Source: a virus | Taxonomy: Duplodnaviria; Heunggongvirae; Uroviricota; Caudoviricetes | Strand: one strand, 5' to 3' | Length of the DNA: 64,000 bases | Virus record (IMG/VR): IMGVR_UViG_3300046499_000850 | Part shown: positions 6,788 through 57,051 of the stretch, piece by piece | Numbering within the stretch: the stretch's first letter is position 1 | How the letters are laid out: every line of letters starts with the position of its first letter | The notes under the pieces: generated by a model | Database searches by the model: none | What the model saw: only the letters and a program-made list of their open reading frames with translations | Told to the model about the DNA's origin: nothing | Made by a program: the position numbers and the translations under genes

Positions 6788-7861
6788 ATGTCGTTGTCTT
6801 TTGACGATGAACCACAAGCAGTAGAACAACCGGCGTCAAGCGCCGATGTGTCCAAGCGCGTCCATGCTTCGGACAAACGGATGATCAACGCCACCACCGA
6901 CGTCAATCAGCTGGTGCCGTTCAAGTACAAGTGGGCTTGGCAGATGTACTTGGATAGCTGCAACAACCACTGGATGCCGGCCGAGTACAAGATGGGCACC
7001 GACCTCAACCAAGTCGCGATGGACCTCATCACGACGGGCGAGCAAAAGATGATCGAACGGGTCATCGGCAGTCTGGTCTTGACCAAGGGTGGCGCTGGAG
7101 ATTTGGCGATGCACATCTACCGGCACATTACGGCGCCGGAAGCGCGGCAGTACATTCTGCGTCAAGGCTTCGAAGAAGCCCTGGTGCCACACGTCTACGC
7201 ACATATCGTCGAAAAGCTCACGCTGAACGAAGGTGTGTTGCTCGACCCGGCCAACCAGCCGACGACGTTCCACAACAAGCAGAACTATCTGGAAAATCGT
7301 CTGACGTTCCTGAGAGACCCGAAGTTCCGTACCGATACGACCGAAAACACGCAAGCGTTCATCCGCGGTCTCGCGGTGTACACGTGCGCCATGAAAGGTC
7401 TGTTCTCGATCGTCGACTTCGTTCAGGTGCTGACACTCGGTCAACGTGGCAAGATGCCCGATCTGGTGCAGCAGTTCTCGCTGATGCTGCGTGACCAGCA
7501 AACCCAGGTCGAGTTCGGTCTCGAAGTGATCCAGGCGATCCGCAATGAGAATCCGCAGGTCTGGACTGACGAGTTGGTGATCGATCTCAAGCAGATCCTC
7601 AAAGATGCCGTGATGCTGGAACTGGCACACGCTGTCGCTACCGCAACTGGAGAAGGCGCTGAACCGCCCCACCAGTATAGCCATCTGTTACAACTGGCGG
7701 CGAACCGCATGGCGATGAAGATCGGTATCGGTGTGATCTTCCAACCGCAAGCCAATCCGTTTCCGTGGATGACCCAGGCGCTGGGTCTGCAGGAACGTAA
7801 GAACATCACCAGCACCCCGGTGGTGGAAAACAAGGTCTCGACCACGTTGGACTGGGACTAA
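6788..7861 (+). CDS. nrdB: ribonucleotide reductase small subunit (R2)-like protein
   Basis: N-terminal FKYKWAWQMYL...NHWMPAEY and C-terminal NPFPWM resemble class I RNR beta; metal ligand set not verified. Confidence 0.65.
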   Translation: MSLSFDDEPQAVEQPASSADVSKRVHASDKRMINATTDVNQLVPFKYKWAWQMYLDSCNNHWMPAEYKMGTDLNQVAMDLITTGEQKMIERVIGSLVLTKGGAGDLAMHIYRHITAPEARQYILRQGFEEALVPHVYAHIVEKLTLNEGVLLDPANQPTTFHNKQNYLENRLTFLRDPKFRTDTTENTQAFIRGLAVYTCAMKGLFSIVDFVQVLTLGQRGKMPDLVQQFSLMLRDQQTQVEFGLEVIQAIRNENPQVWTDELVIDLKQILKDAVMLELAHAVATATGEGAEPPHQYSHLLQLAANRMAMKIGIGVIFQPQANPFPWMTQALGLQERKNITSTPVVENKVSTTLDWD

Positions 7862-7881: not shown

Positions 7882-8172
7882 ATGACACGTGAACAGAAAC
7901 AAGCATGGAAAGAGTTGTTTGTAGGGTTATCGAAAACCTCTGCACTTATTGTAGGTGTGGGTTGGATTTCGTGGCAGTGTTTCGTGGTACGACCAGCGCA
8001 AGCAGCATTGGCGACCCCAACGGTAAGTACGTTTACCTTCAAGGATGCTTGGGGTAAGGACTACAGTGTTACCAGCTGGTTTGCTGATGGCTTGAAATGT
8101 ACGTCGGTAACGGCCGCGCCTTTCAACAATTCGAACAGCGCTTCTGTTAGCGTTTCATGCGCTAAACCTTAA
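7882..8172 (+). CDS. hypothetical secreted/membrane protein (96 aa)
   Basis: RBS caaggagttaacgc; N-terminal hydrophobic segment. Confidence 0.5.
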   Translation: MTREQKQAWKELFVGLSKTSALIVGVGWISWQCFVVRPAQAALATPTVSTFTFKDAWGKDYSVTSWFADGLKCTSVTAAPFNNSNSASVSVSCAKP

Positions 8173-9278: not shown

Positions 9279-9414
9279 GCGGCTATATCACACTACAGAG
9301 TGTAAATGTTGCACAGCAGGAAATTTTTATTGGGCAACAGGATGTTTTGAGTAGTAAGGGAATCGCGACGCCCTGCAACAGTAAAAGATGCGCTTATTTT
9401 TCGGGAGTCGAAAA

Positions 9415-10515
9415 ATGCAAAACGTAGCACCTGCTGTACTTGGTAAGAATCCCCGCTTGGGTGTGATGATCGGTCGTTTCTCGTTCATCCACCGTCAACA
9501 CGAGCGTACCCTGCAAATCATGGCTGCCGAGAATGATTACATCCTCGTCATCATCGGTTCAGCGAATCGCTGCGAGTCCAAGAAAAACCCGCACCAGTTC
9601 GCGATCCGGGCCATGATCATGGCCGAAGTGCTTCGACGGATCAAACCGGATGGGCAGTGGCGGATCATGTCTGTCAACGATACCCTTTACAACGAGGACC
9701 GTTGGAAGATGCGGGTGTACGCGAATGGCGAGCACTACGCGGACCGGCATGGCATCCATCCTGACCGCATCACGTTGTACGGTACGGACAAGGATGAATC
9801 GACCTACTACATGAATTCGTTCCCGCAATGGAACGTCAAGAAAGTGGAGAAGGTCGAAGACATCGATGCCACCAGGTTGCGGGAAGTGTGGTTCCAGAAC
9901 TGCCAGACGGCGCCTGCCGGCCTGGGTCTCCAAGACCATCTGGTCCCGGAGATGTACCGCTATCTGCGTGATGGTCACAAGTTCAACAAACCGTTGCAGG
10001 ATGACTGGCATTATCTCACGGTCAAGGAACCGGAAAAGTTCAAGGACTATCCGTATCCCGAAGCTCTGAACGTGATGTGCGGTGACGCCATCGTGGAATG
10101 CGCGAACCACATCCTGACCGTGACCCGGTCGGGTGAACTCGGTTACGGGCAAATCGCTCTGCCGGGCGGTCACAAAAACAAAAACGAAACGGCGTTCAAC
10201 GCGGCGATTCGTGAACTGTTCGAAGAGACCAACTTGCGCACACCAGAGCAGACCATCCGTAATTGCGTGCAAAACACGTTCCTGTTCGACCATCCTGGTC
10301 GGACGCTGAGCTCGGTTCCCAAATCGACGCTCGGCGTGCACATCAAGATCGAGCTGTGGAAAGGGGAATTCCCGCGCGCCCGTGGCGGTGACGATGCCAA
10401 GCATCCGACGCTGCCGAATGGCGGTATCCGCTGGATTCCCAAGTATGACATCATCAGCGGCAAGGTCCAGATGTGGGATGACCACAACGACATCGTGGAT
10501 TATTTCACGGCGTAA
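9415..10515 (+). CDS. nadM: bifunctional NMN adenylyltransferase / Nudix ADP-ribose pyrophosphatase (NadM-like)
   Basis: GRFSFIHRQH nucleotidyltransferase motif near N-terminus; Nudix box GGHKNKNETAFNAAIRELFEETNL in C-terminal half. Confidence 0.8.
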   Translation: MQNVAPAVLGKNPRLGVMIGRFSFIHRQHERTLQIMAAENDYILVIIGSANRCESKKNPHQFAIRAMIMAEVLRRIKPDGQWRIMSVNDTLYNEDRWKMRVYANGEHYADRHGIHPDRITLYGTDKDESTYYMNSFPQWNVKKVEKVEDIDATRLREVWFQNCQTAPAGLGLQDHLVPEMYRYLRDGHKFNKPLQDDWHYLTVKEPEKFKDYPYPEALNVMCGDAIVECANHILTVTRSGELGYGQIALPGGHKNKNETAFNAAIRELFEETNLRTPEQTIRNCVQNTFLFDHPGRTLSSVPKSTLGVHIKIELWKGEFPRARGGDDAKHPTLPNGGIRWIPKYDIISGKVQMWDDHNDIVDYFTA

Positions 10516-10583: not shown

Positions 10584-12134
10584 ATGTTAGAACTGATTAA
10601 ACCCTTCAACATCATCCTTTGGGCAGACACCTACAAATTCTCGCACTGGGAAGAAATTCCGTTTGCGGTGAAGCAGTTGGTGTCAGCTGTGGTTCCGCGC
10701 AAAGCCATCACTTTCGAGGATGGTACGTTCATGACGGACGACCTGGTGGCCGCTGGACAAACGTTCATCGCCCACGTGTTCGCCACGGCGCGTCTCGAAC
10801 AATGGATGATCGACGAAGCGGAAGTCGAAATTACCGAGCAGGGCTACACCTTCAATCGCGCTGGTTGGGAATACATCCTCCGTACCTACGGTGGCCGGAT
10901 TCCGCTGACCATGTTCGGGGTTGAAGAAGGTCGTGTGGTTAAACCCCAAACACCGATTCTGCTGGTGACCAACGAAGACGACGACCACACCGCATGGTTG
11001 GTTCCGTACTTCGAGCCGGTGATCCAGTCGGTGTCCTGGTCGATGACTTACACGGCCACCATCTGCCGTTACATGTTCACCGTGATGGCGTACTACGTAC
11101 TGCTGTCCGGCGGTGACATCAAACTGCTGGAATATCTGATCCACAACTTCGGTGACCGTGGTGCGGATAGTCCGGATGAAACCCCCGTCCTCAAAGGCAT
11201 TGCTCACGCGATGCTGTTCCTGGGCAGTGACTGCGGGCGTGCCAACGGCTACATCAAGAAGCTGTACAACACGTCCAAACCCTTCACCTCGTCGGTGGAG
11301 GCCACGGAACACACGACGGTCTGCCTGAACTCGGACGCGGCAACGCGTGACGACTTCGGCGGCATGCAGATGGTGATGCGGCGCCTCAAAGCTGTGGTCG
11401 AACGCAGCAAGCGCGGCATCGGTATCCCCATCATCTCGACTGTGCCGGATACCTACGATGACGAACGGTTCATCACGGTGTACGTCGCTGGCTTCAAGGT
11501 GGAAATCGAAAACTCGGGTGGCCGCTTGGTCATCCGTCCGGATTCGGGTATCCCCGCGAAGAAGTTGCCACAAGTGCTCAACTGGCTGAAGGACATCTTC
11601 GGCACGGTTGCGAACGAACTCGGTTACCAGAACCTGCCATGGTGCATCGGCGCGTTGTATGGTGACGGCATGAACGTTCACACTTTCGAACCTGTCGTGC
11701 GGGCAGCGGTGGTGGATCACAAATTCACTACCAACAACTTCCTGCTCGGCATGGGTGCCGGCATCACCAACGAAGGTTCCCGTGACAAGGCAAGCTTCAG
11801 CATGAAAACCATTGCCATGCGTGGCGAAACGTGGAAACGTGTGCTGAAGGAGCCCAAGTCGGACCTGGGTAAGAAGTCGCTGTCGGGTCTGATCCGCAAT
11901 CGTGAAAACGAAAACGGTGAACTCGAAACCTTCGATGCACTGGTATCGAACAGCCTCTACGAGATGTTCGTGCCGGGACCTGGTCATCGTCGTTGGCTCG
12001 ATAAGGGTTACCGCGATTACCGTCAGTCGTTCGATGACGTCCGTGCTTGGGCACAAAAGGGCGCTATCGATAAAGCAACCGCTCGCCTCGCTGCCGAAAA
12101 AGTGGCGCACGATGCAGAAGCTGTAGTAGCGTAA
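10584..12134 (+). CDS. nadV: nicotinamide phosphoribosyltransferase (NAMPT/NadV)
   Basis: N-terminus NIILWADTYKFSHW typical of NAMPT; about 500 aa. Confidence 0.8.
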   Translation: MLELIKPFNIILWADTYKFSHWEEIPFAVKQLVSAVVPRKAITFEDGTFMTDDLVAAGQTFIAHVFATARLEQWMIDEAEVEITEQGYTFNRAGWEYILRTYGGRIPLTMFGVEEGRVVKPQTPILLVTNEDDDHTAWLVPYFEPVIQSVSWSMTYTATICRYMFTVMAYYVLLSGGDIKLLEYLIHNFGDRGADSPDETPVLKGIAHAMLFLGSDCGRANGYIKKLYNTSKPFTSSVEATEHTTVCLNSDAATRDDFGGMQMVMRRLKAVVERSKRGIGIPIISTVPDTYDDERFITVYVAGFKVEIENSGGRLVIRPDSGIPAKKLPQVLNWLKDIFGTVANELGYQNLPWCIGALYGDGMNVHTFEPVVRAAVVDHKFTTNNFLLGMGAGITNEGSRDKASFSMKTIAMRGETWKRVLKEPKSDLGKKSLSGLIRNRENENGELETFDALVSNSLYEMFVPGPGHRRWLDKGYRDYRQSFDDVRAWAQKGAIDKATARLAAEKVAHDAEAVVA

Positions 12135-28343: not shown

Positions 28344-28958
28344 ATGCGTTTCGGTCCACTTCCGGGGATGAACCCCGTCGCACCGGTGCTCAGTCAAAAG
28401 ACCGCGCACTTTTTCATGCACCCGTCGGATGTCGATCCATGGGAAATCAACGACGGTGCCAACGTCACGTCGGCGCTCAAGTTCGGCGCTCACTTCGACC
28501 TGCTGGGGTTGACTCAGACTGACGACCTGCTCCTGAGCGGCGCGGTTGATGTCACGGATTGCCTCGATCCGAATCTGTCGATCAGTGCGCTGTACTATCG
28601 CACCAAGAACGGTGATGTGCACAAGCTGAACCTGACCGGTATGCCGCTCGTCACGATGGTGCCAATTGTCGAAGGCGATTACCGCCGCGTCGAACTGAAC
28701 CTGACCCTGATGGTCAGTAACCTCGGCGCGCCGCAGTCGTTCATCGGCAAACTGTATCACAAACTGCTGGCCCGTCTCGGTTACGAAAAGATCGTGCCAG
28801 TCAAGATCTTCGGCGCCGCCGACCTGCAATTGGGTACTGTGCAGGTCGATTACTCGTGCGCCGGCGTCGACATCACCCCGCTCGGCTACACGCTCGAAGC
28901 CTACCGCTTCAACCACAACCGTCGGCCAGCCGAAGGCAAATGCCCGTTCATGCACTAA
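28344..28958 (+). CDS. hypothetical protein (204 aa)
   Basis: ORF with AG-rich upstream. Confidence 0.55.
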   Translation: MRFGPLPGMNPVAPVLSQKTAHFFMHPSDVDPWEINDGANVTSALKFGAHFDLLGLTQTDDLLLSGAVDVTDCLDPNLSISALYYRTKNGDVHKLNLTGMPLVTMVPIVEGDYRRVELNLTLMVSNLGAPQSFIGKLYHKLLARLGYEKIVPVKIFGAADLQLGTVQVDYSCAGVDITPLGYTLEAYRFNHNRRPAEGKCPFMH

Positions 28959-34900: not shown

Positions 34901-35063
34901 CGCGGAGTAGCTCAGTTGGTAGAGCACTGTTTTTCTTAAGAAGGTCGAACGTTCGAATCGTTCCTGGACGGCGCGGGTTTACTCGCGCACGCCCTGTAGC
35001 TCAGCCAGGTAGAGCATCTTTTGAAGGCAGAGGTCGGGAGTTCGAGTCTCCTCTCCAAGCCCA
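34901..35063 (+). tRNA. two tandem tRNA-like units (about 34901-34971 and 34993-35063) with canonical D/T arms but short loops; cross-unit stem pairing is better than within-unit
   Basis: tagctcagttggtagagc / ttcgaatcg and tagctcagccaggtagagc / ttcgagtctcc; var loop aggtc in both. Confidence 0.4.
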
Positions 35064-35088
35064 GTTTCTAAGTAGTATGTAGTATGTA

Positions 35089-35168
35089 GGGCGTTTAGCT
35101 CAGTCCGGTAGAGCGTCGCCTCCATTAATCGGCGAAGGTCTTGGGTTCAAATCCCGCCGTATCCACCA
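35089..35168 (+). tRNA. tRNA-like unit with 10-nt anticodon loop (tcgcc-tccattaatc-ggcga) and poorly paired acceptor
   Basis: D-arm tagctcagtccggtagagc, T-loop ttcaaat, ends tccacca. Confidence 0.4.
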
Positions 35169-35187
35169 AGTTTTAAAGTAGTACCGT

Positions 35188-35265
35188 AGGGGTGTCGCCA
35201 AGCTGGTCTAAGGCTCCGGATTTTGATTCCGGCATTCGGAGGTTCGAATCCTCCCACCTCTGCCA
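35188..35265 (+). tRNA. tRNA-Gln (UUG)
   Basis: aggggtg..cacctct acceptor, anticodon arm ccgga-ttttgat-tccgg, T-arm ggagg-ttcgaat-cctcc, ends gcca; near-identical to enterobacterial tRNA-Gln. Confidence 0.85.
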
Positions 35266-35283
35266 AGTTTTTTTTGTTTCACC

Positions 35284-35446
35284 GGGTGTGTAGCTTAGTT
35301 GGTAGAGCGCGATCATTTAAGAATTGGGGGTTCGAGTCCCCCTACCTCCCTCTCGGAGGTATGGCGGAATTGGTAGACGCGCCGTCCTGAAAGACGGTTT
35401 CATACCGCGATCGAGGTCTTGGGTTCGATTCCTGACACATCCACCA
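35284..35446 (+). tRNA. split tRNA-like unit X2: 5' half 35284-35314 plus 3' half 35409-35446; the 94-nt intervening sequence carries a permuted type-II tRNA-like unit whose acceptor ends form a hairpin (tacctcc-ctctc-ggaggta)
   Basis: acceptor gggtgtg/cacatcc 7/7 (1 GU), anticodon stem cgatc/gatcg 5/5, var aggtc, T-arm ttggg-ttcgatt-cctga, ends acca. Confidence 0.5.
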
Positions 35447-35545
35447 TCAATGCCTAAGTCAACTTAACCATTTACTAATCAGCCGATAAGTTTAGGTTTC
35501 CAAGAAAGTTGATAAGGGCACCCTTTTGCGTTAGAAGAAGCGTCT

Positions 35546-35619
35546 GTCTCCGATAGCTCAGCTGGACAGAGCGGCCCCGGTGCAGGGGTATGGACCCTGG
35601 TTCGATGCCAGGTCGGGGA
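35546..35619 (+). tRNA. tRNA-like gene with non-canonical anticodon loop (ggtgcag)
   Basis: acceptor tctccga/tcgggga, D-arm gctcagctggacagagc, T-arm cctgg-ttcgatg-ccagg. Confidence 0.45.
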
Positions 35620-35686
35620 GCCCTATTCGAAGAATAAAGACGGCATACAACCCTTCCCAACCCCGGCGGGATCAGGAAGGGAAGAG

Positions 35687-36046
35687 TTAACGTGCGCCGC
35701 CGTTGTAGGGTACCGCCAAGCCTTGCTTCACCAATTCAGCATTGACGCTGGTGGTTGAGTTAGGCAGATATACCTCAGCCAAATAGCGACCGTACTTTTC
35801 TTTTTCGTCAGCGACAGTTTGGATCACCACGGGAGACTCCGGCGGTAACTTCTGTTGCAACCACGCTTTCGAAGCTTTGCCTGCCGGTGTGCTGGTCTCG
35901 GGCGCATTGATCCCGTTAAAGCGGCACGTCATGTTGATGTTGACATCGCAACCGAGGTCAACCCTGAACTCGGCGGTATCCCCATCGATCACCCGAATAA
36001 CGGTGGCGTTACGAATGTAGACATCTTTCTTTTTTGCTGCGACCAT
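35687..36046 (-). CDS. staphylococcal-nuclease (SNase/thermonuclease)-like nuclease
   Basis: VIDGDTAEF...NGINAPET...KYGRYLAEV pattern typical of SNase fold; only minus-strand gene in window. Confidence 0.75.
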   Translation of the reverse strand: MVAAKKKDVYIRNATVIRVIDGDTAEFRVDLGCDVNINMTCRFNGINAPETSTPAGKASKAWLQQKLPPESPVVIQTVADEKEKYGRYLAEVYLPNSTTSVNAELVKQGLAVPYNGGAR

Positions 36047-36113
36047 CGTAGAACTCCCAAAAATACATCATGTGATGCTCATAAAAATGGGCACCATGTT
36101 CTGAAAGAAAGCC

Positions 36114-36302
36114 ATGCTGTCGAAATTAAATGCAGAGCAGAAGAAGCTGGTAACTCACATCTTCAAAGGTATCAACCTTCTGCGCAAACGCGGAGAGTCC
36201 GAACTGAGTCGTGGCGAACGTATTCGGAAAGAATACCAAGCGTTGTCGGGTCGTGACAAACAGACCATCACCCTGCGTTTGAAGAAAGCACTTGGGCTAT
36301 GA
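36114..36302 (+). CDS. hypothetical small basic protein (62 aa)
   Basis: ORF; weak RBS. Confidence 0.35.
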   Translation: MLSKLNAEQKKLVTHIFKGINLLRKRGESELSRGERIRKEYQALSGRDKQTITLRLKKALGL

Positions 36303-36619
36303 TCAGTGCCAAAGAAGCGCGTCTTTTGTCCGAAGACGCGAAAGTCGATATCACTTCGATTCTGGAAAAGCTAGATCGCCGCATCGCTACTTCAGCGGCG
36401 CATGGTCACGATTCGCTGGAGTGTAGTGAAGAAGGTACTGAGGTGGCGACGTACGACGCACATCCCCCCGAACGGCAAAGCTGTCCGGCCACCGTTAAGC
36501 GCCTGATCACCGAACTCGAACGGCTCGGTTACAAGTGGCGTTGGGCATCGGTTCAAGGACCGTACAGAGTCGAACCTTTCACGCCAGGTACAATCTATCG
36601 CCTCGTCATTAACTGGTGA
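36299..36619 (+). CDS. hypothetical protein (106 aa)
   Basis: ATGA overlap. Confidence 0.45.
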   Translation: MISAKEARLLSEDAKVDITSILEKLDRRIATSAAHGHDSLECSEEGTEVATYDAHPPERQSCPATVKRLITELERLGYKWRWASVQGPYRVEPFTPGTIYRLVINW

Positions 36620-36626
36620 GCACAAG

Positions 36627-36704
36627 GCCGGTATAGCTCCTAATTGGTAGAGCAGCGGATTTGTAATCCGATGGTTGGGAGTTCGAATCTCTCTACCGGC
36701 ACCA
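36627..36704 (+). tRNA. tRNA-Thr (UGU)
   Basis: acceptor gccggta/taccggc perfect, anticodon loop tttgtaa, T-arm gggag-ttcgaat-ctctc, encoded CCA. Confidence 0.8.
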
Positions 36705-36925: not shown

Positions 36926-37971
36926 CGTTCAATGGGTTTAGTCTGGATCGTCCGCGGGTCGCATTGTCCATACAGGCGGTATCGCACCGCAGAAACAAGT
37001 GTCTTGACTTCTAAGGTCACCTTACTAAACCCACCCTTTAAGAACCCGTGTTTACACTCGAAGTAAGAACTGCATTAAGACTTGCCTTCGTCTGGCTTTA
37101 CATTTGCAGCTATCCCTCTCGCGGAGGTTTGAGGGACGTACCTAACATGGGTTCTTTCTTATTTCAAATAACCGTACTGATGAGCCGTGGAAGTCGGCCG
37201 CTAGCCTAGCTAGCCAAGGTTGCAAACCCTTCGAAACGGCGCAAGCTGTATGCGGATGGCCCCTCACAATGGAGGCTGTCCCCATGTCACCCCACTACCA
37301 ACAGGGACGGGACTTGATGTGGGTACCCGGCAGTAGCTGATGACAAGGCTGCTTAAATTGTGCGGCTATTTCAAACTGGGCGTACCCCTGTCAAGGGTTC
37401 GACCCCCGCTGGTAGCAAGTTGTGCGATAGTCTGTGCTGGACTTGTAACCGCAAGGAACTTGTTCTTCGTGACGCGATCGAAAGATCATTGTGCAGCCGT
37501 TGGTCTGTCTTTGGGGTTGTGGCCACAATCCGTGAAGAATTCCATCGTGGAATGGCGAGAGGAAGGGACATCGCGCCCGGCCGTGGATGGCGGACCTTCC
37601 TCTCACTTCCTTCTAGTTAACTTAGCCGGACTCTAATTCAGAAAGCATCTACCGGAAACAAAGAGCCGGTTAAGGATGGGAAGAATGAACGCCTAGAAGG
37701 AAGCACATGACTAAGGCAGGTGCGGGTCGACACGCATGGCTGTATGAAAGTGTGTGGGTATCTAGGACGGGGCATGGTTCGAATCCATGGCGTCCGGCTA
37801 AGTTAACTGTTTAGAAAGTACTTACAGGGTGGGGCAAAGGTACGGAAGGATCAGATCCGTGCTACGTAACCACAATACTGGATTGATCCTCTGGTATGTT
37901 GGTGGACCGTCACGACGGTGCCGCCACCCTGTAAGTACTTTTATGCCGTCAATTTTTTAGAGAGTGCAGAA
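36926..37971 (+). ncRNA. about 1-kb structured non-coding region with tRNA-like T-arm (37765-37789), AA*-ending mini-ORF and 18-bp perfect inverted repeat (37815-37832 / 37924-37941); candidate tmRNA-like or other large ncRNA
   Basis: ggacgggg-catgg-ttcgaat-ccatg; gca gta gct gat gac aag gct gct taa at 37330-37356; no credible CDS. Confidence 0.35.
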
Positions 37972-38865
37972 ATGTGGAAATGGTTGATGCGTGTACTGAG
38001 CGGCAAAGAACCACTGGCAAACACCAAGAGTCTCCGAATCGAACACTTGGTAGATCGTCAAACCCAGACTGTCGAAGAAGGTGGTGTGGGTGTTCAAGTA
38101 GGCGGTGATTTGGTACAACCAAAACCATCGTCGGGCGGTAAAGGGGCTCCGTATATGACCCCCATCTCTTCACTTTCTACCCAACGTTCGCGCAGTCTGG
38201 AAGAACTCGGTATTCGGGCATCCCGTGGTCCGATCGATTCCGAGGCTACACGCCGCTCTATCGAGCGGTTCAAACAAACCCAAGCTTTAAGCGATAGCGC
38301 CCGCCAAGCAGCGCTCGAACATATCAAACGGAGCTCGACGTTCAATCCTGCGCCACCGAGTAATAATGTGTTCAACGCGACACCCCACGTGACCCTGGTT
38401 CCCGGGAGCCGTGCTGCGCAAATTCAAGCGGCCGCAAACGCGGCGGCTCGCGATCAAGCAGACTGGGCTAGGATTCGGGCAGAGCAAGATCGCCAAGACG
38501 CCCTGCGTCGAGCTTTGACTAAAGCGGCTGAGATGAATGCAGCAACCAGTCGCGGCGTTGCTGCTGTTCGTCAGGATCAAGAAGATTATCGCCGTAGGCA
38601 AGAAGAAGAGTTGACACGTCGTCGCCGTGACGACGATGACGCTACTACCCGTAGCCTAATGTTCAGCAACACAAACAACACTGTCGACAACAGTCCGGCA
38701 CCGGCGTACCACCCGCCCGTTCATCATGATCCAGCGCCGTGCCCTGCGCCGTATTACCATCAAGACAACAGTTCGAACCGCCACCCCAGTTGCCCGACCC
38801 CGTCGTATGACAACGGTGGCAGCAACTGGGGTGGCGCCGATCCGAGTCCCTCGAACAACGATTAA
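37972..38865 (+). CDS. hypothetical disordered/low-complexity protein (Ala/Arg/Asp/Pro-rich)
   Basis: RBS agagagtgcagaa-ATG; upstream part of ORF lies in inverted repeat. Confidence 0.45.
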   Translation: MWKWLMRVLSGKEPLANTKSLRIEHLVDRQTQTVEEGGVGVQVGGDLVQPKPSSGGKGAPYMTPISSLSTQRSRSLEELGIRASRGPIDSEATRRSIERFKQTQALSDSARQAALEHIKRSSTFNPAPPSNNVFNATPHVTLVPGSRAAQIQAAANAAARDQADWARIRAEQDRQDALRRALTKAAEMNAATSRGVAAVRQDQEDYRRRQEEELTRRRRDDDDATTRSLMFSNTNNTVDNSPAPAYHPPVHHDPAPCPAPYYHQDNSSNRHPSCPTPSYDNGGSNWGGADPSPSNND

Positions 38866-39145: not shown

Positions 39146-39234
39146 GCCCGGATGGTGAAACTGGTAGACACCCGAGGCTTAAACCCTCGTGCGAATAAAG
39201 TAGCGTGCGGGTTCGATTCCCGCTCCGGGCACCA
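39146..39234 (+). tRNA. tRNA-Leu (UAA), type II
   Basis: acceptor gcccgga/tccgggc, anticodon arm cgagg-cttaaac-cctcg, long variable arm, T-arm gcggg-ttcgatt-cccgc, CCA. Confidence 0.8.
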
Positions 39235-39235
39235 A

Positions 39236-39320
39236 GGGAGTATGGCGGAATTGGTAGACGCCCCGGCCTCAAAATCCGGTGTCGAAAGACGTGCGAGTTC
39301 GAGTCTCGCTACTCCCACCA
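39236..39320 (+). tRNA. tRNA-Leu (CAA), type II
   Basis: acceptor gggagta/tactccc perfect, D-arm gcggaattggtagacgc, loop ctcaaaa, long variable arm, T-arm gcgag-ttcgagt-ctcgc, CCA. Confidence 0.7.
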
Positions 39321-41182: not shown

Positions 41183-41746
41183 ATGAAGAAAATCAAGTCG
41201 TTGTTTCAACGTAATTACGATGGCGACCGCCAAGTCCGTAACGAAGTCGTTCCTGGTTCGGAATGGGTGACCCTTGGAGAGGGTTACGCTACCCGGAAAT
41301 GGGATGGCATGGCAGTTAAGTTAGAGAACGGGCAGTTCTTTAAACGGTACGATGCCAAAACGGGGCGTACACCTCCGCCCGACTTTCAGCCTGCTCAACC
41401 CTTGCCTGATCCGGAAACGGGCCATTGGCCGGGTTGGGTGCCATTGCAAGGTAAAGAACTCAAGCGTGTCATGGAAGCCTACCGCCAATCTGGTGTGTCG
41501 GAAGAAGGCACGTTCGAATTCTGTGGTCCAACGATTGGTACGCGTCACGGCGCCAATCCGGAAAACCTCACCGAACACATTTTGGTACCGCACGGGCAGG
41601 AAATACTGTCCAACTGTCCGCGCGATTTCGATGGATTGAAAACGTTCTTGGGGGAACGAAATATCGAAGGGGTTGTGTGGTGGCATCCCGATGGCCGTCG
41701 GGTCAAAATCAAGGCTGCTGACTTCGGTATTCAGCGGCGGCACTAG
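41183..41746 (+). CDS. small covalent-nucleotidyltransferase (ATP-dependent RNA/DNA ligase-like) protein
   Basis: TRKWDGMAV (KxDG motif I), EGVVWWHPDG (motif IV-like), RVKIK (motif V-like); only 187 aa. Confidence 0.45.
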   Translation: MKKIKSLFQRNYDGDRQVRNEVVPGSEWVTLGEGYATRKWDGMAVKLENGQFFKRYDAKTGRTPPPDFQPAQPLPDPETGHWPGWVPLQGKELKRVMEAYRQSGVSEEGTFEFCGPTIGTRHGANPENLTEHILVPHGQEILSNCPRDFDGLKTFLGERNIEGVVWWHPDGRRVKIKAADFGIQRRH

Positions 41747-52924: not shown

Positions 52925-54157
52925 ATGGAAACCAAATACGAATTGCTGGACAATCCCTCGTTTGAATCGGCCGCACCTGTCAAGATGTGGACACGTGGTG
53001 TGCCGGTCGAAGACGAGGCCAAAGTTCAACTTAGCCGTATGGCAGAAATGCCGTTCATCTACAAGCACATCGCGGTTATGCCGGACGTCCACGTCGGCAA
53101 AGGTTCGACCATCGGCAGCGTGATCCCGACCCTTGGCGCCATCATACCGGCTGCCGTCGGCGTCGATATCGGCTGCGGTATGATGGCGGCCAAAACCACG
53201 CTGGCGGCTAGCGACCTGCCAGACAATCTGTTCGGTATCCGCTCAGCGATCGAGAAAGCCGTACCGCACGGCCGTACCAACAATGGTGGACGTGGCGACC
53301 GTGGCGCATGGTACAGCACTCCGGAAGAAGTTGTTCACGCGTGGGGTGAACTGGCAACCGAGTTTGCCACCATCACGCAGAAACATCCGCGTCTCGCCAA
53401 GACCAACAACATCCAGCATCTGGGTACGCTTGGGACTGGTAACCACTTCGTGGAATTGTGTCTCGATGAACATGGTTCGGTCTGGATCATGTTGCACTCG
53501 GGTTCGCGTGGTGTCGGCAACAGCATCGGTATGCAATTCATCGAGCTGGCGAAAGAAGACATGCGTTCGCACCAGATCAATCTGCCAGAAAAGGATCTGG
53601 CGTATTTGCAGGAAGGTACCCGGCATTACGACGACTACGTGGAAGCCGTCGGTTGGGCGCAGAAGTTCGCGCTCAAGAACCGCGAGGTGATGATGCACAA
53701 CGTCATCAAGGCTATCCGCACGATCATCACCAAACCGTTCGAGACCCATGTCGAAGCGATCAACTGCCACCACAACTACGTGCAGAAGGAAAACCACTTC
53801 GGCCGTGATGTGATGTTGACCCGCAAAGGCGCAGTGTCGGCTAAGCAAGGTCAGCTCGGTATCATCCCGGGTTCGATGGGCGCCAAGAGCTTTATCGTGC
53901 GCGGTAAAGGTAACCCCGAATCGTTCGACAGCTGCTCGCACGGCGCTGGACGCAAGATGAGCCGTACTGCCGCGAAAGCTGCGTTCACGGTGGAAGACCA
54001 GATCAAGGCAACCGAAGGTATCGAATGCCGCAAAGACGCCGAGGTGATCGACGAGATCCCGCTAGCGTACAAGGACATCGATGCGGTGATGGAAGCCCAG
54101 AGCGATCTGGTTGAAGTCGTCTACACGCTACGCCAAGTCGTCTGCGTCAAAGGTTAA
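52925..54157 (+). CDS. rtcB: RNA-splicing ligase RtcB
   Basis: HVGKGSTIGSV, DIGCGM, GTGNHF, HSGSRG, NCHHNY, SCSHGAGR signature motifs. Confidence 0.95.
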   Translation: METKYELLDNPSFESAAPVKMWTRGVPVEDEAKVQLSRMAEMPFIYKHIAVMPDVHVGKGSTIGSVIPTLGAIIPAAVGVDIGCGMMAAKTTLAASDLPDNLFGIRSAIEKAVPHGRTNNGGRGDRGAWYSTPEEVVHAWGELATEFATITQKHPRLAKTNNIQHLGTLGTGNHFVELCLDEHGSVWIMLHSGSRGVGNSIGMQFIELAKEDMRSHQINLPEKDLAYLQEGTRHYDDYVEAVGWAQKFALKNREVMMHNVIKAIRTIITKPFETHVEAINCHHNYVQKENHFGRDVMLTRKGAVSAKQGQLGIIPGSMGAKSFIVRGKGNPESFDSCSHGAGRKMSRTAAKAAFTVEDQIKATEGIECRKDAEVIDEIPLAYKDIDAVMEAQSDLVEVVYTLRQVVCVKG

Positions 54158-55806: not shown

Positions 55807-57051
55807 GTGGAAATATATCTCGTAGGCGGCGCAGTCCGTGACCAAGTCATGGGTGTGCCATCGTTGGACCGTGATTGGGTGGTGGTAGGTAGCACTCCTG
55901 AGCAAATGGAAACCCAAGGTTATCGCTCAGTCGGTAAAGACTTCCCGATCTACTTACATCCGCTCACGAAAGAAGAATACGCGTTAGCGAGGCGTGAACG
56001 CAACGGCAACGTCACCGTGTTCTCGCCGGATGTGACACTGGAAGAAGACTTGGCGAAGCGTGATCTCACGATCAATGCCATGGCGATGGAACTGTTCGAT
56101 CTGGACAAGCCAACGGCGTCGTACCGCGTGATCGACCCGCACTTCGGCCACGACGACATCCTCAACAAAGTACTGCGGATGGTCAGCTACGATGCTTTTT
56201 GGGAAGACCCGATCCGGGTGTTGCGCGTCGCTCGCTTTGCTGCGCGCTATCCGGACTTTCGCATCGATTGCGGTACCATGCTGGCGATGGAAGAACTGGC
56301 CGACAAGGGCAAGCTCGATAACCTCGCACCGGAACGCGTCTGGAAAGAACTGTCACGTGGTCTGATGGAGATCAAGCCATCGCGCATGCTGCAAGTGCTG
56401 CGTGAATGCGGCGCGTTGAAAGTGATCCTACCAGAAGTCGATGCGCTCTACGGTGTTATTCAACCCGCCCAATGGCACCCGGAGATCGACACCGGCGTCC
56501 ACGTCGAGCAAGTGCTCGATTATGCTGCCAGCCAGAACTTCGAACTGCCAGTGCGGTGGGCGTGTTTGTTGCACGATCTCGGTAAAGCGTTGTCGCCGAA
56601 AGACACTCTGCCTGCCCACCACGGTCATGAGTACGAAGGCGTCCATCTCGCGTTAAATGTTTGTGAGCGTTTAAACGTACCAACGCGAATAGCCCAAGTG
56701 GCCATCACTACGACCCGTGAACACGGTAACATCCACGGGGCGATGAAGTTGCGGCACACGAGTATCACCAAAATCTTGCGCAAGTGTGATGCGTTCCGTA
56801 ACCCAGACCGTTTCCAACACATCCTGCAAGCGTGTCTGTGCGATGCCCGCGGTCGGCATTCAGAAACCAAGAGCTTCGCTGATGTCGAGTACCCGCAAGC
56901 CGTACGTCTGACCAACGCTCTGTGGGCTGCCAAGCAAGTCAAAGGTGACCTAGTCGCGGAACGCTGCAAAGGTCGTCCACAAGACATCGCTTTGGAAATG
57001 CACGCAGCTCGCGCCCGCGCCATCAAAGCATTCGAGCGTAATCAAAAATAA
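55807..57051 (+). CDS. cca: CCA-adding tRNA nucleotidyltransferase (class II, with HD domain)
   Basis: YLVGGAVRDQVMGVPSLDRDWVVVG head motif; HD-type C-terminal half; GTG start with RBS aagaaggagtaag. Confidence 0.9.
   Translation: MEIYLVGGAVRDQVMGVPSLDRDWVVVGSTPEQMETQGYRSVGKDFPIYLHPLTKEEYALARRERNGNVTVFSPDVTLEEDLAKRDLTINAMAMELFDLDKPTASYRVIDPHFGHDDILNKVLRMVSYDAFWEDPIRVLRVARFAARYPDFRIDCGTMLAMEELADKGKLDNLAPERVWKELSRGLMEIKPSRMLQVLRECGALKVILPEVDALYGVIQPAQWHPEIDTGVHVEQVLDYAASQNFELPVRWACLLHDLGKALSPKDTLPAHHGHEYEGVHLALNVCERLNVPTRIAQVAITTTREHGNIHGAMKLRHTSITKILRKCDAFRNPDRFQHILQACLCDARGRHSETKSFADVEYPQAVRLTNALWAAKQVKGDLVAERCKGRPQDIALEMHAARARAIKAFERNQK

Follow-up and report, generated by a model that had tools for sequence, protein, structure and literature searches.

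A modular, structured non-coding RNA with a hammerhead-like core in the tRNA island of PhiKZ-like jumbo phages

What does a kilobase of phage DNA encode if no credible protein gene is found in it? We addressed this question for positions 36926-37971 of a 64,000-nucleotide (nt) stretch of the Caudoviricetes record IMGVR_UViG_3300046499_000850 from IMG/VR, the whole of which is referred to as the window. The window is jumbo-phage DNA; a PhiKZ-type capsid gene (PhiKZ_MCP) is present on the 272-kb contig to which it belongs, and the region itself is located inside a tRNA island. An earlier inspection of the letters (the sequence-only reading) had described the region as devoid of coding sequence and as a candidate tmRNA-like or other large non-coding RNA. 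The gene-free kilobase is a modular, highly structured non-coding RNA, encoded on the + strand and belonging to a previously undescribed family. We further propose, with moderate confidence, that this RNA carries a variant type-I hammerhead ribozyme and would be cleaved and acquire its ends according to the mechanism described below.

The absence of a credible coding sequence was borne out. Gene callers predicted no gene in 36926-37971 across seven near-identical contigs, nor in three contigs of a divergent lineage (10 contigs in total). The internal open reading frames (ORFs; 44-98 amino acids (aa)) had no match in Pfam and gave one marginal match only in PHROGs (E = 0.097), and the homologous regions vary by many frame-breaking indels whose lengths are not multiples of three. 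Compared with shuffled sequence, both strands of the region were found to fold better (z = -3.3 and -3.1).

A blastn search of the region against 50,697 GenBank phages gave no match. The RNA element was found in three PhiKZ-like jumbo-phage lineages only, at the same syntenic site in each. The window lineage has two variants which differ at 25 positions, clustered in 37238-52 and 37507-37614, and which are identical over 36926-37237 and 37712-37971. The second lineage, L008 (IMG/VR 3300038443_002533, 272 kb), was reached via a nearby RLIG1-like gene. The third, L056 (also present as L059, L069, L070, and L071, on contigs of 65-67 kb), was reached by a DNA-pattern scan of metagenomes, which besides chance hits yielded this one new lineage (L056/L059). 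The comparisons thus cover three independent lineages and four sequences. In all three lineages a tRNA precedes the element, with or without an intervening membrane ORF of 67 aa, and the element always lies within a tRNA island and is followed by the same gene, which evolves fast and is of low complexity. DNA-pattern scans of IMG/VR with blocks from the hammerhead, the central domain, the tRNA-like domain, and the P1 domain (all described below) returned only the L008 contig or chance hits, and a scan of GTDB genomes returned chance hits only. Profile searches with nhmmer and a covariance model of the central domain (R1) over 0.8 Mb of related loci gave nothing new, and R1 recovered the three lineages only. 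Protein searches with three flanking genes returned only these genes themselves or the same three lineages. A search for related loci with the downstream gene found none, and a search with the staphylococcal-nuclease-type (SNase) and RLIG1-like genes identified 43 loci, among which the L008 contig alone carries the RNA. In a related 322-kb phage the flanking genes are kept, and neither such an RNA nor the downstream gene is present at the syntenic site. The RNA family is real but narrow in distribution.

None of the known RNA families that we searched accounts for the region. Rfam models at gathering score recognized only tRNAs in the whole window and nothing in 36926-37971. With the threshold set to E <= 10, both for a 1.4-kb segment and for sub-segments of 121 and 226 nt, no match was obtained except for a mascRNA-type T-arm alignment with E = 8; at E <= 1 nothing was found on the element in the L056 and L008 homologues. 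The Infernal/Rfam scan gave no match in the region to tmRNA, to group I or group II introns, or to RNase P RNA, including at E <= 10; the suggestion that the region might be a remnant of a self-splicing intron is not supported. The models of GOLLD and ROOL, two classes of large phage RNAs, matched neither the window element (E <= 10) nor its L056 and L008 homologues (E <= 1). ARAGORN detected no tmRNA in the window. A scan of the window region for sigma-70 promoters and terminators gave nothing on the + strand.

Comparison of the lineages resolved the region into the following modules.

36933-37033, + strand: P1 domain, in all three lineages; a closing helix of 10 bp (UGGGUUUAGU / ACUAAACCCA) around ~80 nt of conserved hairpins
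37040-37156, + strand: variable hairpin insertion with the 13-bp helix AAGAACCCGUGUU / AACAUGGGUUCUU; longer in L008, absent in L056
37160-37255, + strand: type-I hammerhead-like core, in all three lineages
37256-37556, + strand: central domain of ~300 nt with ~13 helices, in all three lineages (RNAalifold)
37557-37604, + strand: GA-rich hairpin with the helix GAGAGGAAGG / CCUUCCUCUC
37615-37808, + strand: tRNA-like cloverleaf domain, in the window lineage and L056; absent in L008
37815-37941, + strand: hairpin of 127 nt (closing helix: perfect 18-bp inverted repeat), then UUUUAU; window lineage only
37940-37952, + strand: promoter-like motif TTTATGCCGTCAA, before the downstream gene

The test for covariation that the sequence-only reading had suggested was positive. 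In the central domain (alignment of 37251-37610, GA-rich hairpin included) 92% of the cells were paired and 36 pairs were changed on both sides, compared to 6-10 in slid controls, and none of 500 shuffles reached 36. For the P1 domain 90% of the cells were paired and seven pairs had changed on both sides (0-1 in slid controls; shuffles 1/500); its closing helix covaries as AGU/ACU, GAC/GUC, and GGU/ACC. The helices of the central domain contain 85 G-U cells against 8 A-C cells, indicating that the pairing works for a transcript of the + strand only, and not for duplex DNA or for the opposite strand. The region also contains several inverted repeats of 10-13 bp and one of 17 bp that had not been listed before. 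In one palindrome of the central domain, UUGUGGCCACAA (37517-37528), an invariant UGGCCA (37520-25) caps a stem (helix 13) which shows covariation across the three lineages, and this loop is a candidate site for loop-loop self-association.

The segment between the P1 domain and the central domain has, in its reading order on the + strand, the topology of a type-I hammerhead with an open stem I. Its parts were tabulated by script for the four sequences, since MAFFT misaligns the longer stem III of L008. In the window they are arranged as follows.

37160-71, + strand: 5' tail, UAUUUCAAAUAA
37172-76 and 37251-55, + strand: stem I, CCGUA (3' strand) with UGCGG (5' strand)
37177-83, + strand: core CUGAUGA
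37184-37232, + strand: stem II region of 49 nt, consisting of G10.1, a 47-nt three-hairpin block, and C11.1
37233-35, + strand: core GAA
37236-49, + strand: stem III, ACGGC-GCAA-GCUGU
37250, + strand: A17, with the predicted cut between 37250 and 37251

The catalytic core (C3 U4 G5 A6 N7 G8 A9 and G12 A13 A14) is complete and invariant in the four sequences of the three lineages, as are A15.1-U16.1, C15.2-G16.2, and G10.1/C11.1. The cleavage triplet is GUA or GUC (GUH), H17 being A, A, A, and C in the four sequences and never G. The stems around it do change. Stem I reads CCGUA/UGCGG, CCGUA/UACGG, GGUA/UACC, and GCGUA/UAAGC, and stem III reads ACGGC/GCUGU, ACAGC/GCUGU, ACAUCUC/GAGAUGU (with a 19-nt loop), and ACGUC/GACGU, so that stem III is 5, 5, 7, and 5 bp long, and both stems covary through compensatory changes. 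The conservation of the catalytic nucleotides and of the GUH triplet amid changing stems is hard to explain other than by selection for catalysis, and it is very likely on these comparisons that the core has been selected as a catalyst. A script for the hammerhead arrangement applied to both strands of the window (128 kb) found this site only, compared to a mean of 0.073 in shuffled sequence. A second CUGAUGA at 37336-42 was considered as a second ribozyme and rejected, as it is not conserved.

The stem II region differs from that of a standard hammerhead. Hairpin A of its 47-nt block (GCCG-UGGAAGU-CGGC) and hairpin C (AAGG-UUGCAAAC-CCUU) are invariant, and hairpin B covaries (GCUAGC/GCUAGC, CCUGU/ACAGG, and CCUACUA/UAGUAGG). 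In the sequences compared, the 5' tail offers UUUCA, UUCUA, or UUCCA as a possible pairing partner for loop A (UGGAA; in the window, 37162-66 with 37188-92). Both variable positions of the tail are always a pyrimidine facing G, and the putative pseudoknot between loop and tail can pair throughout these C/U changes. The element thus looks like a hammerhead-type core of a new variant. Additional copies of the hairpin A motif (GCCGUGGAAGUCGG) are present as GCCGUGGAUGGCGG in the loop of the GA-rich hairpin (window 37580-37593) and as GCCGUGGAAAUCGGU in the variable insertion of L008 (about 7592-7606); they may represent alternative pairing partners or a protein-binding motif.

A tRNA-like domain is found towards the 3' end of the element. 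It is delimited by a second perfect inverted repeat, 17 bp long (37615-31 / 37792-808), which had escaped the sequence-only reading and which forms a closing helix of 17 bp in the window and of 14 bp, with different outer pairs, in L056. This helix closes a four-way junction with three arms. In arm 1, UUCA/UGAA surrounds a hairpin whose stems differ between the lineages (CAUC/GAUG versus CAUG/CAUG, and CCGG/CCGG versus GCGG/CCGC). Arm 2 is long and variable, and its base changes from CGCCUAGA/UCUAGGACG to CGCUUUGG/CCAAAGACG with three compensatory pairs. The canonical T-arm, CAUGG-UUCGAAU-CCAUG (37773-89), forms arm 3 and is separated by two nt from the closing helix's 3' strand. The T-arm letters had been reported previously and were found as described (ggacgggg at 37765-72, catgg at 37773-77, ttcgaat at 37778-84, and ccatg at 37785-89); in L056 the T-arm (5 bp and a 7-nt UUCRANY loop) is kept as CGUGG...CCAUG, with GGUUCGAAUCCAUG identical. 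Over the whole domain 96% of the cells were paired, and eight pairs had changed on both sides (0-1 in slid controls; shuffles 0/500). Neither Rfam nor ARAGORN reported a tRNA within 36926-37971. The domain has no 7-bp acceptor stem, CCA, or discriminator base, in agreement with the earlier remark that acceptor pairing with an encoded CCA is missing; the helix beside the T-arm is 12-17 bp long, and the other two arms are oversized (~54 nt and ~145 nt). A second T-loop-like sequence, GGGUUCGACCCC at 37397-408, was rejected because it is not conserved.

The modules around the 3' end of the element differ between the lineages. In L008 the counterpart of the GA-rich hairpin is a 14-bp hairpin followed by a T-run (terminator-like site at 8037-8072) with which the element ends there, and which by its sequence we take to be an intrinsic terminator. 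In the window the tRNA-like domain begins ~10 nt past the equivalent hairpin. From this position we infer that the domain may recruit tRNA-processing enzymes to cut in front of it, as mascRNA does for MALAT1; this is a conjecture by analogy. The 18-bp perfect inverted repeat that had been reported exists (37815-32 / 37924-41, with 91 nt between the arms), and by chance only ~1e-5 such pairs would be estimated in 1.4 kb. The hairpin it closes is identical in both variants of the window lineage and absent from L008 and L056, and it is a lineage-specific accessory, possibly terminator-like, rather than part of the core.

The motif TTTATGCCGTCAA at 37940-37952 marks the 3' boundary of the RNA element. 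On the + strand it occurs upstream of genes at 37940-52 and 42165-77 (both exact), at 60011-23 (one mismatch), and at 8203-15 (two mismatches), and in total six matches were found against 1.5 expected. In every lineage the motif, as TTTATGC(C/T)GT(C/A)AA, precedes the downstream gene. Late promoters of PhiKZ contain TATG, as does TTTATGCCGTCAA, and the motif is probably a phage promoter. The downstream gene (37972-38865) encodes a protein of 297 aa of low complexity, R/E/D-rich and then P/S/G-rich, which evolves fast (~46% identity over 70 residues to its L069 homologue) and was found in the three RNA-bearing lineages only.

In the mechanism that we propose, a transcript of the tRNA island would fold into the structured RNA, and the hammerhead would cut after A37250, splitting the transcript in two. 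The 5' piece would comprise the P1 domain and the ribozyme and end in a 2',3'-cyclic phosphate, and the 3' piece would be a central RNA of ~350 nt with a 5'-OH at its beginning. This central RNA would end at the GA-rich hairpin, by intrinsic termination in L008. In the window lineage and L056 its 3' end would be set by tRNA-processing enzymes acting at the tRNA-like domain, comparable to RNase P at MALAT1/mascRNA. RtcB joins ends of the kind that hammerhead cleavage produces (cyclic phosphate and 5'-OH), and the phage genome encodes an RtcB as well as a CCA-adding-type enzyme; a link of these enzymes to the RNA element is speculation. The most likely setting of the RNA is a phage module for tRNA and RNA repair, the same niche as that of GOLLD and ROOL. 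A bolder version of the proposal holds that the element represents a third class of giant ornate phage RNAs from tRNA islands, one that would mature itself: a hammerhead with a conserved, sensor-like module of three hairpins on stem II would free the ~350-nt RNA with its 5'-OH, and the phage RtcB and CCA-adding enzyme would then act on this RNA or on its cyclic-phosphate partner. We consider this version unlikely as it stands.

Several observations weigh against the hammerhead proposal and the mechanism built on it. None of the Rfam hammerhead models reports the site at E <= 10, even on the 121-nt segment, and stem II is non-canonical, with 47 nt and three hairpins inserted after G10.1 and before C11.1 (alternatively, after C11.1 and before G12). 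As no changes occur in hairpins A and C, covariation is silent on their pairing, on the fold of stem II, and on the topology of the junction. The structures were predicted from the same alignments in which the double changes were counted, and three independent lineages make for weak covariation statistics. Some lineages dispense with the tRNA-like domain or the 18-bp hairpin, which makes the model for end formation a conjecture, and with a single ribozyme there is no evident second cleavage site for circularization by RtcB. Part of these observations would fit a transcript of 0.85-1.05 kb that acts intact and possibly self-assembles, in the manner of GOLLD or ROOL, with a hammerhead-like core that is inactive, very slow, regulated, or only a structural junction. 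The non-canonical stem II region and the lack of a match to Rfam hammerhead models point in this direction, as do the shared niche of a phage-encoded RNA in a tRNA island with an embedded tRNA-like element (PMC12286853), the conserved palindromic UGGCCA loop on its covarying stem, which could mediate self-association, and the conservation of both flanks of the predicted cleavage site (P1 domain and central domain). We nevertheless regard an RNA that acts intact as doubtful: all catalytic nucleotides and the GUH triplet are kept across lineages despite the changing stems, and the GOLLD and ROOL models do not match. The RNA might also act in cis on the downstream 297-aa gene, as a long leader or regulator through which ribozyme cleavage controls the mRNA. 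This would be in line with the co-occurrence of RNA and gene in all three lineages and their joint absence from the syntenic site of the 322-kb phage. This co-occurrence may, however, be mere shared gene order, and the predicted strong terminator between RNA and gene in L008 and the repeated promoter-like motif directly upstream of the gene in every lineage make such a leader quite unlikely.

The remaining explanations concern what kind of element the region is. Long perfect inverted repeats (17 and 18 bp) and the better-than-shuffled folding of both strands could also be expected from an element acting as DNA (a replication origin, a packaging site, or a cruciform), and decayed coding sequence may be considered as well. 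Strand-specific pairing favors a single-stranded RNA of the + strand instead, the hammerhead core and the T-loop are themselves strand-specific, no turn in GC skew is present at the position of the element, and no ORF is conserved. A DNA-level element or a decayed gene is thus highly improbable, and the origin mentioned by the sequence-only reading is not supported. The tmRNA that the same reading had put first, as a one-piece or two-piece molecule, drew on the canonical T-arm beside a long helix and on a short frame ending in AA-stop. The window does contain this frame (gca gta gct gat gac aag gct gct taa, 37330-37356), but the L008 and L056 homologues lack it, and a role as tag did not hold up; the bases concerned form a covarying hairpin (37332-53; AGUAGCU / GGCUGCU, helix 5), of which the frame covers one side and the loop. 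Together with the negative ARAGORN and Rfam results, the 12-17-bp helix in place of a 7-bp acceptor stem with CCA, and the lack of the T-arm module in L008, this leaves a tmRNA-like RNA exceedingly improbable, and corrects a tempting misannotation. The more general suggestion of a large regulatory or other non-coding RNA was supported, in the form of a large structured non-coding RNA.

Comparison with known systems places the hammerhead proposal in context. Type I hammerheads (RF00163 and related; Perreault et al., 2011, PMC3088659) share with the element the complete core CUGAUGA...GAA, A15.1-U16.1, the GUH triplet, and an open stem I. Phage hammerheads process long transcripts (PMC3088659), and the element is likewise phage-encoded, intergenic, and so placed that it could process a long transcript. 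Its putative loop-tail pseudoknot resembles those of many natural hammerheads, in which pseudoknots stabilize the active fold (PMC3088659). Stem II of hammerheads can be as short as 1-2 bp (PMC3088659), whereas the element has a conserved 47-nt block of three hairpins at this position, which is not among the variants that we found described in PMC3088659. The element further differs in that it is not scored by Rfam models and is embedded in a conserved structured RNA of ~1 kb instead of standing alone. In engineered allosteric hammerheads (aptazymes) a sensor is grafted on stem II and makes cleavage ligand-dependent; the extra folded module at stem II of the element resembles this arrangement in architecture only.

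GOLLD and ROOL are large ornate RNAs of phages or prophages, found near tRNA islands and sometimes with embedded tRNAs (PMC12286853). The element is similar to them in its size of 0.85-1.05 kb, its dozens of helices, and its phage-encoded position in a tRNA island, and it holds a tRNA-like part, as GOLLD sometimes carries tRNAs in its linker (PMC12286853). It differs in having no sequence or structure match to either model, in having a hammerhead core, and in its restriction to three jumbo-phage lineages. With the tRNA-like domain of tmRNA and with MALAT1-mascRNA it has in common a canonical T-arm (5 bp and UUCGAAU) stacked by a terminal helix, and, as for MALAT1/mascRNA, the module is located just 3' of a long structured RNA, where we conjecture that RNase P cleavage could make the 3' end. 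Unlike in these RNAs, the closing helix has 12-17 bp instead of 7, CCA and discriminator base are missing, the arms are oversized, and there is no tag frame.

The genes around the element, which are all on the + strand except for the SNase gene, include an upstream group of nine tRNA genes (34901-36704) and, at 39146-39320, two for tRNA-Leu (ARAGORN and Rfam). The SNase gene at 35687-36046 (- strand) is the sole minus-strand gene within the tRNA island, and is kept at 81-82% identity in 272-kb and 322-kb relatives. Some tRNA genes of the island are unusual, with anticodons left undetermined by ARAGORN at 35355-35446 and 35547-35622. In L056, Rfam tRNA hits of 106-134 nt at 646-768, 1014-1119, and 1235-1368 look as though extended by long inserts or introns, for one tRNA a 4-base anticodon was called, and weak YrlA-like hits are present as well. 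The ORF matching PhiKZ_MCP (28344-28958; 204 aa, or 196 aa as called in L001) is far below the size of a full major capsid protein and may be a fragment or a domain-only paralogue. The phage gene set for RNA repair and NAD metabolism in the window comprises the following genes.

52925-54154: RtcB (E = 7.5e-128)
55807-57048: CCA-adding / poly(A)-polymerase-type enzyme (PolyA_pol) with an HD domain
41183-41746: RLIG1-like RNA ligase
10584-12134 and 9388-10515: NAMPT and a NUDIX protein, in that order

Among GenBank phages the closest RtcB is that of Acinetobacter phage MD-2021a (69.5% identity), followed by that of Pseudomonas phage D6 (62%).

The functions of GOLLD and ROOL are a standing puzzle, and an unrelated RNA in the same niche offers an independent handle on such RNAs, here with recognizable parts in the form of a putative self-cleaving core and a tRNA-shaped domain. 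For the best-studied small ribozyme, a hammerhead variant of this kind would widen the range of known architectures, with a conserved folded module at the position where engineers place sensors. Ends of hammerhead type are the natural substrates of RtcB, which is encoded in the same genome, and this makes a ribozyme-ligase pathway directly testable. If the bolder version of the hammerhead proposal is true, the element would be part of a natural RNA-processing pathway of ribozyme plus RtcB in a bacterial virus, possibly regulated and possibly yielding ligated or circular RNA.

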